64,000 bases of DNA from Escherichia coli (GTDB lineage Bacteria; Pseudomonadota; Gammaproteobacteria; Enterobacterales; Enterobacteriaceae): NCBI RefSeq assembly GCF_050920415.1, contig NZ_CP169309.1. The stretch is one strand, 5' to 3'. A program made the position numbers. The first letter of the stretch is position 1. Each line of letters begins with the position of its first letter. Shown here piece after piece: positions 6,001 to 9,000 of the stretch.

Positions 6001-9000
6001 CCCCCATCCAGCGCCGTTTCATGATGGCCGTTAACAACGATCCTGAAGTACCAGAAAGGTTGCACCTTAACTTTGATTTAAGTTACACAGAATCAACGGA
6101 TAAGGGTGCGGCATGAGGCGAAACAGGCTAAAATCCAGGCATCATTTAACAGCTGGAGCATGGAATATGCGAGTTCTGAAAATCGAATGCCCGGAATGCG
6201 GCTCAAAGGCTGTTATTCGTAAAACAAACAGGAAGCACCGGCAGATTGCTGATATTTACTGCGCCTGTTCAGATGTTGAGTGTGGCCACACGTTTGTTAT
6301 GAATCTGACGTTCTCCCACACTCTCAGCCCCAGCGCTAAAACGGGTGATGCGATGGTGCAAAAAATACTGAATGCACTTTCACCCGATCAGCGCCAGATG
6401 GCATTAGACCTACTGAAAGCGACTCCCGCCGCCTGAAATGCCCCCATTCTGGGGGCGTTGCCCTTCCTTTTTAACCATTTCGCGAACCTCTCCCGCAAGC
6501 TCTCCAATCCAGGCCAAAGCAATTGTTTTTTCTCTCTGGTTACTTTCGTAAACATGGGCAATTTTGGCCAATAATTCAATGCGTTCCAGCTGTGCCGACG
6601 CCTCCAAAAGATCCATTTAGCCCCCACAAGCAATAAATAACTGGATATATATACAGTACACCTTAAAGCACGAATTGTGAAACTTAATTTCCTGCCATCT
6701 ACTGACAAATGAATGTGTTACACACACATGCACACCTATAACCACCCCGGCCATAGCTCCTGCAATGGTTCGTTTCGTGTTTCCTTCAACCGCCCATTGC
6801 GGTAAATCAGCGCCCCCTGACCAAATATCAAACCACTACCCCGCAGGAGAATGGCTATTTCTTCATCGGAACCCTCAAAACCCCGACTGCGTAATTCCAG
6901 TTTTAACCGTCTGCGGGTTCCTCCCTCCGTACAGTTATTGACAGAACTCCAAGGGGCGGCGTTGCCGCCAGAAAAACCCGCCTCCGCTGTCGCTTCGGCC
7001 AACTTCGCAACCTTTTGCCACTTAACAAGACGGGTGCAAACTTCTGAATCAGGAACCAAAGGAGAATAAACACCCTGTACGCGCTGCACGTCCTCCGCGT
7101 ATTCGTTGCCCTGTTCCGTAATTTCATAGGCCAGACGAACAACCAGATCACGGCGGGCAACCAGTGCACCGCCCTGCGCCTGGGTATATGCAGCCCAGTC
7201 CCCGACATCAGCAGCGGCCAGAACCGCATCCATTCTGCGATCTGTCAGTACCTGATCCCTCAACCGACGCAGCTCACGCCAGACGGTTACCGGCGCGCCA
7301 CCAATCTGCTGAAACTGGCGAATACGCCAGCGTGAAGCCCACGCGGAAACGGACTTAGCCATATCACGCAGGTTTTCGCCGGTTTCTTCATCCTGTTCAC
7401 CATCCAGCGCAAAACCATCAATATTTTTTGAAATGTATTTCGCGATGTAGCCCGTGGCCGAACCTTTGGCGGGATCGATAGCTTCAACATGAAAACGCGC
7501 CTTCAGCGCCTTTTCAGATTGCAGTTCTTCAGAATCAGTAATTCTGGCGTGATAACAAAGAATATCGCGTACCGTGTCCACGTCCTGCGGACGCATAAAA
7601 AGCAACATATGCCAGTGCGGTGTCCCGTCATGGTGAGGCTCAACAACCCGAAACCCAAAGACATGAATACCCGCACGCGAGATCGCTGCGCGTGCTTTTG
7701 CCCATACGCCACATAAATAGCGCTGAGTATCCTGTGGTGTACTTCCATCCCACTGTGAAACAAAGCCCCCTTTGCTGTGCACCGCATGGAATCGCGATGG
7801 CGCGGTGATGGTGTAAAACTCACCGGCCAGCCCTTCTTCATTGGCCATATCTTCAAATCCTCTCATTCTTACCATTAGTTCACAGCGACGGATCGCCGGA
7901 TTTGCAACGCTGCGGTGCACCATGCTGTCCAGTGCAATGCGCAGCCCTTCATCATTCAGCAGATCAAACTTTTTGAAGAACTCCAGATTCCGCTTTTTCT
8001 GTTCTATCCATTCCTCTAGGGTTTTACGGGATACATAAGCACTGGCCGCTTTTTGTACCTGCCCCACCGCGATGGCCATATGTTCGCGCTGCGTATCACG
8101 CGCACGTTTAAGACGCAGGTACCACCATTCCGGCGCCATCATGCGCAGTATCCCGGATTCCGCCTTACGCGTTTCCAGTTGACCTTCATTGGCCTCATGA
8201 TCAGCCCAGTACGGCGGCTGGTTATTCAACATCAGGCAACACGCACAAAGATGGCGGTATGATTCCAGGGTTCGGCGGTGCAGTTCTCTGGCGTCGTCAG
8301 TGCCGGATTCAAACTGTTCGGTGAAGTCATAAAGTGACTGGGAAATCCAGCCAGATACCTGACCAGCCAGTTTTTTAAGATCAAGACGGTCTAATGACGG
8401 CAAGCGCTCCAGCGACTTACCAAAAGGAAGATCAGCAGCATCAGCGGCCAGAGAGTAACGCGCAGCCACTTTTCGCAGACGAGGCAATACATTCTCGCCA
8501 ATAGTTTTACGCAAGAATGTATTGGCTCGGCGACGCCCGTCACGGCCAGAAAAAAGCTTTTCGTAACGACGGCCAAAATACCCGGCTAACCAGTCGGGTA
8601 TCTCATGAAGGTACTTTGAGCGCCATTCGTAATCCTGCGGGTTAACAGCCCACAGGCGGCGTTCTGTGATAGTCGCGTCTGCCGGTGTGCCTGGTGCGAA
8701 AGTTTCCCGCCTCCAGGCATCAACGGTATAGCATTGTTCATTTATTGCCAGCGTCATGCGCTGGCCTCAGAAGTCGCCGGTAAAGGCCATTTAAGAATCA
8801 GCTCTGCCGCCGTTTTCGGGCTTGCAGCTGCCGCACCGACACTACGCGGCGCATTAACCTTTACGGCGTCAAACCCTGCATACAGGTAATGCACCATTTC
8901 CAGATCGCTGTTTGACGCGACAACGGGAATCCCACGTTCAGCCAGTCGGCGCAGTTTACGCGCCAGCCGCCCCTGATCCATGTGCGAAAAACCGCGCTCA

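Follow-up and report, generated by a model that had tools for sequence, protein, structure and literature searches.

The window, a 64,000-nt stretch of Escherichia coli chromosome, carries from position 1 to ~15,400 the right part of an ESSI-2/K139/HP1-type prophage of the P2 family. A rightward late operon that begins with the terminase large subunit gene runs through the portal gene to an Ogr/Delta-type zinc-finger gene, on which the replication initiator gene gpA converges from the opposite strand. The features discussed are as follows.

3205-3227: dyad TTCGG-N13-CCGAA, putative Ogr binding site, in the divergent O/P intergenic region
3283-5058, plus strand: terminase large subunit (gpP homologue; Pfam Terminase_5, Terminase_6N and Terminase_6C), opening the rightward late operon
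5055-6116, plus strand: portal protein (gpQ homologue; Pfam Phage_portal, E = 1.2e-17; 99% identical to the ev040 portal)
6113-6436, plus strand: Ogr/Delta-type zinc-finger gene, putative late activator (PF04606, PHROG 603; 107 aa)
6410-6616, minus strand: short tum, 68 codons (68 aa), N-terminal half of 186 Tum (PHROG 698, E = 2e-22)
6437-6459: G+C-rich hairpin with a ten-pair stem (RNA fold), likely P-Q-ogr terminator, immediately following the stop codon of ogr and lying within the 3' end of tum
6639-6658: LexA (SOS) box AACTGGATATATATACAGTA, two mismatches to the 20-nt consensus
6653-6681, minus strand: predicted p95-like promoter, -35 TTCACA at 6676-6681, 17-nt spacer, -10 TACTGT at 6653-6658 within the LexA box
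6736-8757, minus strand: replication initiator gpA (Pfam Phage_GPA, E = 4e-106), the final large gene in the leftward early operon
11819-12403, plus strand: 186-type CI repressor (PF07022, PF16452; 45% identity to 186 CI), presumed target of short Tum
12772-14265, plus strand: cargo gene in the cI-int slot, defence candidate PDC-S49 (PADLOC E = 3.4e-106; GC 0.33)
14312-15352, plus strand: integrase (Pfam Int_N, Phage_integrase)
From 15920: host opgE (ybiP), downstream of the integrase

A prophage of E. coli XYEH3934 occupies the same insertion site, between mntR and mntS-opgE. A 673-aa ORF at 60918-62939 was considered as a second gpA and rejected, as it is host uvrB. An Rfam scan of 1-16,000 (E up to 0.1) gave no match. 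The preliminary description had read 6437-6735 as about 300 bp of non-coding DNA, which does not hold: here lie the 68-codon gene, the hairpin, the LexA box and the p95-like promoter, and the true spacer, between tum and gpA, is only 6617-6735. Short tum and the 3' end of ogr share a coding overlap of 27 bp. The same hairpin is found in ev040 and ESSI-2, followed by a T run; that of the window is weaker because its T run is displaced rather than adjacent.

The 68-codon gene sits at the tum position, but what does it encode? Its product matches residues 5-42 of 186 Tum by BLASTP (32% identity, E = 1e-5, a short similarity of 38-39 residues) and the 186 Tum N-terminus by hhalign (probability 86%, E = 5.5e-6), and PHROGs 698, 8554 and 1993 are matched by both proteins. 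Residues 87-145 of 186 Tum match the DinI-like domain PF06183 (E = 1.8e-17). Nothing of the kind is present in the 68-aa protein, so its equivalent is not full-length Tum but the upstream half of the split tum of PSP3 and Fels-2, which in PSP3 has been reported to encode the antirepressor (personal communication cited in PMC3121763). Homologues of the 68-aa protein form 66 clusters, for which all source names shown are “hypothetical” or “uncharacterized,” and share an invariant core of D2, L10, R12, I13, L15, A33, L34, W36 and E39. An alternative minus-strand ORF of 106 aa (6388-6708) matches no Pfam or PHROGs family and was rejected as a gene.

Upstream of short tum, the LexA box is the only site in the 64 kb with at most three mismatches (0.01 expected), and is nearer to the consensus than the box of host uvrB at 63014 (five mismatches). 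It is conserved in 11 relatives and laid out as in 186 p95. The distance from box to start codon is 21-24 nt in the window, XYEH3934, ev040, L013-L019 and L018; larger distances are seen in ESSI-2 (33 nt as extracted) and in Yen324, where the start is not fixed. A generic sigma-70 scan of 5700-7000 returned no promoters, and the p95-like promoter was recognized solely by comparison with the annotated 186 promoter.

These likenesses suggest that the 68-aa protein is a DNA-damage-inducible antirepressor like the product of 186 tum. The prophage carries a 186-type CII beside CI, and CI shows no LexA-like peptidase domain, matching only PF07022 and PF16452. In E. coli HS, induction of an SOS-inducible P2-like prophage is abolished by deletion of tum or by a lexA(Ind-) allele (PMC11195241). 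Compared with ev040, the two genes of the window that have diverged are those for Tum and CI (43 and 37% identical, respectively), against an identity of 96-100% for A, cII, Q and Ogr. Over nine loci, covariation of Tum and CI is suggestive only: the correlation (Mantel r = 0.70, p ~0.06) rests mainly on one allele pair, that of ev040, and is not sharpened by splitting CI into its N- and C-terminal halves.

The ORF could instead have a role other than that of an antirepressor, with the LexA-controlled promoter producing an SOS antisense RNA over ogr and the portal gene, or the ORF encoding an unrelated small protein, for instance an exclusion or toxicity factor, and induction proceeding by other means. 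The shortness of the Tum similarity leaves room for this, as do the PHROG 698 label (“unknown function”), the lack of any match to the protein in Pfam, NCBIfam or PADLOC, and the pairing of identical Tum alleles with CIs of 67-73% identity. The hairpin is moreover a poor terminator in the tum direction, so that antisense read-through to ogr is possible. However, it is the protein that is conserved, with its invariant core kept across the 66 clusters, and it aligns with the very part of Tum reported as the antirepressor in PSP3. The ORF is also found with a 186-type CI, and no tum-like ORF is present in SI7, which has a P2 C-type repressor; its promoter and position copy those of 186 p95-tum. 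We regard a role other than antirepression as unlikely.

The assignment of the neighboring gene to the Ogr/Delta-type zinc fingers, already made in the preliminary description, is borne out. The protein matches the whole of Pfam Ogr_Delta PF04606 (E = 9.2e-20; score 70.8 bits, cut-off 26.3; positions 1-47 of the 47 in the profile) and PHROG 603, a transcriptional regulator family that also contains 186 B (E = 2e-40). Its cysteines follow the motif C-X2-C-X22-C-X4-C (C8, C11, C34 and C39 of the short form, MRVLKIECPECG...YCACSDVECGHTF). In RefSeq the E. coli copies go by the name “ogr/Delta-like zinc finger family protein.” It is the sole gene of this type in the window, and its counterpart is likewise the sole one in the complete ev040 genome.

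The same description placed the start of the gene across the Q stop codon. This is true of the first ATG, at 6113, which overlaps the portal stop codon (ATGA) and would give a long form. A second candidate start, ATG 6167 (MRV...), has a GGAG 8 nt upstream (6155-6158) and would give a short form; it too is conserved, down to K139, and is the start used in the ev040 annotation. The portal-overlapping ATG and its open frame are kept in 13 of 13 ESSI-2-like loci, SI7 having one in-frame 6-nt indel. No convincing independent promoter of ogr was found, since the scan returned none and a conserved TTAAAAT at 6128-6134 is without a -35 element.

A candidate site of action lies between O and P. Sequences of the form TTCGG-N12-15-CCGAA occur once in the window and once each in ev040, ESSI-2 and Yen324, at the same position (0.1 expected per genome), and the dyad, with a spacer of 13 or 14 nt, is conserved in all relatives as far as K139 and HP1. 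Conserved -10-like elements, CAATTATTGCC (3155-3165) and GCATAAT (3269-3275), flank it at ~56 bp on each side of its center (3216). The O/P region does not contain the strict P2 motif TGT-N12-ACA, a result that says little because the P2 pO/pP site fails the same script. On the precedent of P2 Ogr and 186 B, the zinc-finger protein would activate both divergent late promoters.

Might the protein regulate other genes, or satellite cross-talk, and late transcription be controlled otherwise? Its identity to 186 B is only 26% over 39 residues, it has a C-terminal extension of 35-40 residues, and the O/P region does not hold the strict P2 motif. On the other side, the PF04606 score is well over the Pfam gathering threshold with exact cysteine spacing, a complete relative genome holds no second copy, and throughout the branch the gene is conserved as the last of the late P-Q operon. 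The only divergent late-promoter region contains a unique conserved dyad of P2/186-like geometry. In the light of these observations, a function outside late activation is very unlikely. The Ogr-like gene probably encodes the usual late activator of a large P2-like prophage branch that has been described before.

The position of this gene had been taken for an apparent relocation. In the HP1/K139/ESSI-2 layout an Ogr-like gene comes directly after the portal gene, its transcription converging with that of the rep/gpA operon, and the window has this layout. It is standard in ESSI-2, ev040, Yersinia (the phage vB_YenM_324 included), Salmonella, K139, HP1, phiO18P, F108 and phi3, and all phages of this type that were examined, from six host groups, have the portal-ogr arrangement. 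Homologues of the window protein are present in 144 phage records, and the Q-ogr-A segment (5900-6900) is matched at the DNA level in 28 of 5,426 complete E. coli genomes. The portal-ogr arrangement occurs in thousands of enterobacterial assemblies; a single tum allele is indexed in 7,042 blocks. Since related phages routinely share it, the arrangement of Q followed by ogr is an ordinary subfamily feature.

Two expectations had been carried over from P2, in which ogr is indeed found between D and attP/int, and the A-Q interval contains tin, old and cos. The first was that cos belongs in the Q-A interval. This fails for the HP1/K139/ESSI-2 branch: in relatives the candidate cos of the family, GCGGGTGCGGTGTAG, is flanked by the last tail gene and attP, and in this prophage it would fall outside the window, beyond its left end. 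The terminal repeat of ESSI-2 (15 nt) is contained in the 22-mer CAGGCGGGTGCGGTGTAGTGCC, and this 22-mer recurs exactly in Yen324 and the E. coli XYEH3934 prophage, between a D-like gene and attL. In ev040, a Nextera adapter is inserted at the site of the ESSI-2 cos candidate, and in the HP1 annotation cosL adjoins attP. The search proposed for 6437-6735 was run over 6000-6800 and found nothing: neither the P2 or 186 19-mers nor the ESSI-2 15-mer at up to three mismatches, nor the ESSI-2 22-mer at up to five. There is no room for cos in the interval because ogr and tum overlap. Two other candidates were rejected: a G-rich stretch at 6412-6432 falls in the coding sequence of ogr and tum alike, and its sequence is not kept in ESSI-2; a cos-like motif at 380-401 belongs to a hairpin conserved in the M-L intergenic region and probably has no part in packaging.

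The second expectation was a cargo position. No cargo of the tin/old type lies here, as had been said: nothing between gpA and ogr resembles tin, old or 186 orf97. To call the position empty is right only for a small slot between tum and ogr, which is filled in some relatives (by an Abi-like gene in E. coli TK3887 and by a DUF2806 gene in L018/L019) and unfilled in the window; the interval itself holds the tum module. The main cargo sites of this branch are the cI-int slot and the vicinity of cos. The PDC-S49 slot of the window matches the K139-type cI-int hotspot described by Rousset et al. (2022; PMC9122126); E. coli XYEH3934 has nothing in this slot, and other relatives have other contents there.

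What had been described as an apparently relocated late activator does differ in position from that of P2, but it belongs to the fixed HP1/K139/ESSI-2 layout and not to any event in the window phage. A move of the activator to the portal gene in this phage, vacating a cos-adjacent Q-A cargo site and leaving an unusual derived state, would account for gene positions that differ from P2, and the gene between tum and ogr in some relatives does mean that the window copy shows a small variable slot in its short form, but with the portal-ogr arrangement common to the phages and assemblies above, and a lineage interval that holds the tum module and not cos, such a move is highly improbable.

The interval is, we think, likely to be the meeting point of two convergent units, terL-portal-ogr on one side and an SOS-tum unit after gpA on the other, with cos and cargo elsewhere. 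The rightward unit would be the late operon, ending with the single Ogr/Delta gene, whose product would act on the divergent late promoters through the one O/P dyad. As ogr lies at the 3' end of the late operon, Ogr would thereby reinforce its own synthesis. P2 has the same self-reinforcement, through read-through of the F operon into ogr. In the leftward unit, a LexA-repressed promoter of the p95 type would drive short Tum; DNA damage would lead to cleavage of LexA and production of Tum, which, judging from homology, would inactivate the non-cleavable 186-type CI and so induce the prophage. Each unit would end on the other, through the coding overlap and the shared hairpin, with no cargo between them in the window copy.

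The two units might also be functionally coupled. The portal-coupled ATG might give a late-phase long isoform of Ogr beside the short form from ATG 6167, and the tum transcript, having no good terminator, could run antisense into ogr and the portal gene, such transcriptional interference timing or damping the late switch. Coupling of this kind is quite unlikely.

The significance of the locus is small and chiefly one of annotation. In the sources searched, the 68-aa gene is named only as “hypothetical” or “uncharacterized”; it is present in thousands of assemblies of Salmonella, Citrobacter and Escherichia. If this gene is truly a short tum preceded by a LexA box, the whole prophage family would be SOS-inducible by way of an antirepressor. 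The cos and cargo sites of this branch lie away from their P2 map positions, which matters for the definition of prophage ends and for defence-hotspot mining.

Among known systems, the closest to the leftward unit is the p95-tum-orf97 operon of 186. There, tum lies directly downstream of A, as short tum does here, and annotated p95 has the same hexamers (TTCACA and TACTGT) and layout as the window promoter, with a spacer of 18 nt and a LexA box 18 nt upstream of the start. The 186 operon includes orf97 and a DinI-like domain, whereas the window has neither, nor a separate DinI-like gene, and cos does not come after window tum. Short tum falls in PHROG 698, and its counterparts in 186, PSP3 and Fels-2 in 189 or 1993. 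The upstream half of PSP3 tum is, like the window protein, stand-alone and antirepressor-sized (PMC3121763).

For the rightward unit, P2 Ogr, 186 B and P4 Delta share PF04606 and the C-X2-C-X22-C-X4-C motif with the window protein, the cysteine spacing of 186 B being identical, although the window protein has 89-107 aa against 72 in the P2/186/P4 type. As in P2 and 186, the gene is a single small one that ends a late operon; it adjoins the portal gene, whereas the P2-type counterpart adjoins gene D and attP. P2 and 186 have one activator site between pP and pO, and the geometry of the window dyad mirrors these annotated sites, with the center of the putative site ~66 bp from the inferred starts compared with -55 for the P2 TGT-N12-ACA type. 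The cos-adjacent hotspot between gpA and gpQ of P2 (tin, old) corresponds in the window to an A-Q interval without cos or cargo.

Within the branch, the Ogr protein of ev040 is 100% identical to that of the window, and K139 orf13, annotated as a “zinc-finger protein,” belongs to the same family with 57% identity. In K139 an extra gene, orf14, separates orf13 from the portal gene, unlike in the window. The Ogr-like copies of HP1 and phi3 are unannotated, and the genes between the Ogr-like gene and rep vary among the HP1/K139/ESSI-2 relatives. In HP1, cos is next to attP/int and ~10 kb from the portal gene, and the candidate of the ESSI-2 family is likewise near attP; HP1 cosL has 9 bases and the ESSI-2 repeat 15, the sequences differ, and the ESSI-2 terminal repeat loosely resembles the G-rich core of P2 cos.

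The window opens with the right-hand portion of a P2-family prophage, which extends from the first nucleotide to ~15,400; what follows is Escherichia chromosome, from opgE (ybiP) to bioD. In map order, with P2-style letters in brackets, the prophage carries:

Left end of the window, minus strand: terminase small subunit, capsid and scaffold genes
3283-5058, plus strand: terL (P)
5055-6116, plus strand: portal gene (Q)
6113-6436, plus strand: Ogr-like ORF
6736-8757, minus strand: gpA (A)
Next after gpA, minus strand: Dam
Beyond Dam, in order: DUF2732, 186-type CII, CI, a cargo gene and integrase

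The nearest phage records to positions 5000-9000 are the ESSI-2-like coliphages ev040 (ESSI2_ev040), ev015 and ev129 (94% identity); Salmonella S.Kent 1-2-1 and Cronobacter ESSI-2 are more remote. E. coli XYEH3934 has a prophage in the identical insertion site, between mntR and mntS-opgE. ESSI-2-like prophages are rare in E. coli, the nearest being in E. albertii and Citrobacter (Mathieu et al., PMC6969025). Positions 5900-6900 are carried by 28 of 5,426 complete RefSeq E. coli genomes (best identity 96.1%), and the source strain may be atypical.

According to the preliminary description, ogr appeared relocated to the portal gene, with ~300 bp of non-coding DNA between it and gpA, and the P2 cargo position appeared vacant. 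The gene and its position are real, but an ordinary lineage-wide layout was taken for relocation, and a gene with its SOS control region was missed within the "non-coding" stretch. The identification of an Ogr/Delta-type zinc finger overlapping the Q stop is borne out by a Pfam Ogr_Delta match (E=9.2e-20), a C-X2-C-X22-C-X4-C spacing exactly as in 186 B, and the ATGA formed by the first ATG of the ORF and the portal stop codon. No other Ogr-type gene occurs in the window, and the complete ev040 genome likewise has just one.

The start of ogr differs between database annotations. An alternative ATG at 6167 (MRV...) has GGAG 8 nt upstream, is common to K139 orf13 and is the annotated start in ev040. 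The ATG overlapping the portal stop is found in 13/13 ESSI-2-like loci (ATGA, or TGATG in ESSI-2 and the related locus L018), and the resulting extension of 18-20 codons is open in every one, the sole indel being an in-frame 6 nt in the related locus SI7. Because this ATG and the open extension are kept in all 13, translational coupling of ogr to the portal gene is plausible, and starts at both 6113 and 6167 are plausible candidates. No convincing separate promoter was found for ogr; a conserved TTAAAAT near its start (6128-6134) lacks a -35. A hairpin (6437-6459) lies at the 3' end, where ogr and the next gene converge.

Is the position of ogr unusual? ESSI-2, ev040, Yersinia phage vB_YenM_324 and SI7 all have terL, then the portal gene, then the Ogr-like gene, which converges with the rep/gpA operon. 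This same layout also occurs in K139 (orf13, annotated "zinc-finger protein"), HP1 (where the Ogr-like gene is unannotated), phiO18P, F108, Pseudomonas phi3 and every enterobacterial contig examined. In P2 and 186, by contrast, ogr/B lies between D and attP, and in Burkholderia phiE52237 and KS14 the Ogr-like gene is in the early region. The E. coli copies already carry the RefSeq name "ogr/Delta-like zinc finger family protein", and E. coli prophages have been placed in an HP1/K139 late-gene cluster (Nilsson et al., PMC3448106). Relatives therefore routinely show the same arrangement, which by the preliminary description's own test refutes a relocation in this phage; Q-ogr is the ordinary layout of the lineage and nothing special.

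Nor is the space between ogr and gpA ~300 bp of non-coding DNA. The minus strand at 6410-6616 encodes a 68-aa protein, hereafter short Tum, whose gene overlaps the 3' end of ogr by 27 bp at its own 3' end. The protein falls in PHROG 698 (E=2e-22 over the full length). Its homologues in enterobacterial genomes form 66 clusters with an invariant residue core; all source names shown are "hypothetical" or "uncharacterized". BLASTP aligns the protein's residues 4-42 to 186 Tum residues 5-43 (E=1e-5), profile comparison gives a probability of 86%, and three PHROGs are matched reciprocally by both the protein and the 186 Tum N-terminus. The C-terminal half of 186 Tum, a DinI domain, is absent here. 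In PSP3 and Fels-2 tum is split in two, and the upstream half in PSP3 encodes an antirepressor according to a personal communication (cited by Lemire et al., PMC3121763); it is to this upstream half that the short tum corresponds. In 186, p95-tum directly follows gpA, and the short tum sits in exactly that place.

The spacer left over (6617-6735) contains AACTGGATATATATACAGTA at 6639-6658, which differs from the 20-nt LexA consensus at two positions and is the sole site with ≤3 mismatches in 64 kb (0.01 expected); the host uvrB SOS box at 63014 is further from consensus. The box provides a minus-strand TACTGT -10, with TTCACA 17 nt upstream of it; in the annotated 186 p95 promoter the hexamers are identical and the spacer is 18 nt. 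A LexA box lies upstream of the short tum in 11/11 other ESSI-2-type loci examined. It is 21-24 nt from the start in the window, XYEH3934, ev040 and the related loci L013-L019 (L018 included), and more distant in ESSI-2 (33 nt as extracted) and vB_YenM_324 (start not fixed).

The repressor is a 186-type CI (PF07022 and PF16452), as CII is of 186 type. Identity between the window and ev040 is 96-100% for gpA, CII, portal and Ogr but falls to 43% for Tum and 37% for CI, with DNA homology broken exactly at 6456-6635; this comparison is suggestive of Tum-CI covariation. SI7, with a P2 C-type repressor, has no tum-like ORF. Over a set of nine loci, Tum and CI show a correlation that is no more than suggestive (r=0.70, p ~0.06), and identical Tum alleles occur beside CIs of 67-73% identity. 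Experiments on an SOS-inducible P2-like E. coli prophage showed induction to be Tum-dependent and LexA-dependent (PMC11195241). Here, DNA damage would take LexA off the box at 6639-6658 and allow short Tum to be made, which in turn would inactivate CI and start early transcription.

On the late side, a unique dyad, TTCGG-N13-CCGAA (3205-3227), lies in the sole divergent late-promoter region, with conserved -10-like elements ~56 bp to each side, an arrangement like that of P2 and 186, where one activator site separates pP from pO. Ogr would bind this dyad and turn on both late operons, and since ogr is the last gene of the P-Q operon, late transcription would feed back on Ogr; P2 gets the equivalent feedback via F-operon read-through into ogr. 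No Shine-Dalgarno sequence precedes the terL start codon at 3283 (3269-3285), and every ESSI-2-like relative has a conserved GCATAAT ~7 nt before that codon (K139 and HP1 are similar), so the P-Q-ogr late mRNA may be leaderless.

The P2-based premise that cos lies between Q and A fails for the ESSI-2/K139/HP1 branch. With ogr and tum overlapping, no space remains for it, and no match to the P2, 186 or ESSI-2 cos sequences was found at 6000-6800. The ESSI-2 record has an identical 15 nt at both ends, GCGGGTGCGGTGTAG. Despite a coding-region identity of just 65-75%, the 22-mer around it is exact in the Yersinia phage and the XYEH3934 prophage, where it falls between the last tail gene and those on the attL side. 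In the ev040 record (NC_049393.1 / LR597638.1, ~29,620-29,665) an Illumina Nextera adapter, TCGTCGGCAGCGTCAGATGTGTATAAGAGACAG, interrupts the family cos sequence, a database artefact that marks the physical virion DNA end. The annotated cosL of HP1 adjoins attP, ~10 kb from the portal gene, and the K139 record is cut at the corresponding place. The prophage's own cos site is predicted to lie left of position 1.

A long minus-strand hairpin at ~330-420 (GGCGGAC...GTCCGCC, then TTTTT) lies between the gene for the terminase small subunit and those for head completion. Every ESSI-2-like relative conserves it, and P2 and 186 have a counterpart. Probably an attenuator or terminator, the hairpin contains a stretch that agrees with the cos 22-mer at 17/22 positions (0.03 expected per genome). 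Between it and gpM is a 33-codon His-rich mini-ORF (MKESHLQGAHTHTVGAHSHSLSGVHTHTFNTEQ; ~418-519, minus strand), a segment with no DNA-level match to ev040, where a 65-aa gene annotated 'L33' is found instead.

In the host chromosome, two low-GC (0.30-0.34) minus-strand islets (56326-58623 and 35498-37510) encode homologues of SopA-like HECT-type E3 ligase effectors, one product with pentapeptide repeats and SopA_C (E=1e-20), the other with SopA_C only (E=1e-14). A 550-aa protein without matches (59107-60759) adjoins the first islet. A low-GC group of small minus-strand genes at 49003-50566 is a possible orphan immunity cluster; among its products are a SUKH-4 immunity-like protein (49003-49488) and a DUF3969 protein (50207-50566).

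The P2 cargo hotspot is cos-adjacent, and K139-like phages have a separate one between cI and int (Rousset et al., PMC9122126). In the window the cI-int slot holds a low-GC (0.33) gene for a 497-aa protein (12772-14265, plus strand), a match to the PADLOC defence candidate PDC-S49 (E=3e-106); the product aligns with profile positions 122-614 of 624, and its N-terminus may be shorter than that of the family. XYEH3934 leaves this slot unfilled, and other relatives have WYL or bPH_3/SHOCT genes in it. A small second slot lies between tum and ogr, occupied by a DUF2806 gene in L018 and L019 and by an Abi-like gene downstream of tum in E. coli TK3887, recalling 186 orf97. Of the supposed empty cargo position, then, what stands is that this small slot is vacant in the window, while the Q-A interval itself holds the tum module. 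All components are of known kinds: Ogr/Delta activators, 186-type LexA-Tum-CI induction, HP1-type cos placement and a K139-type cargo slot.
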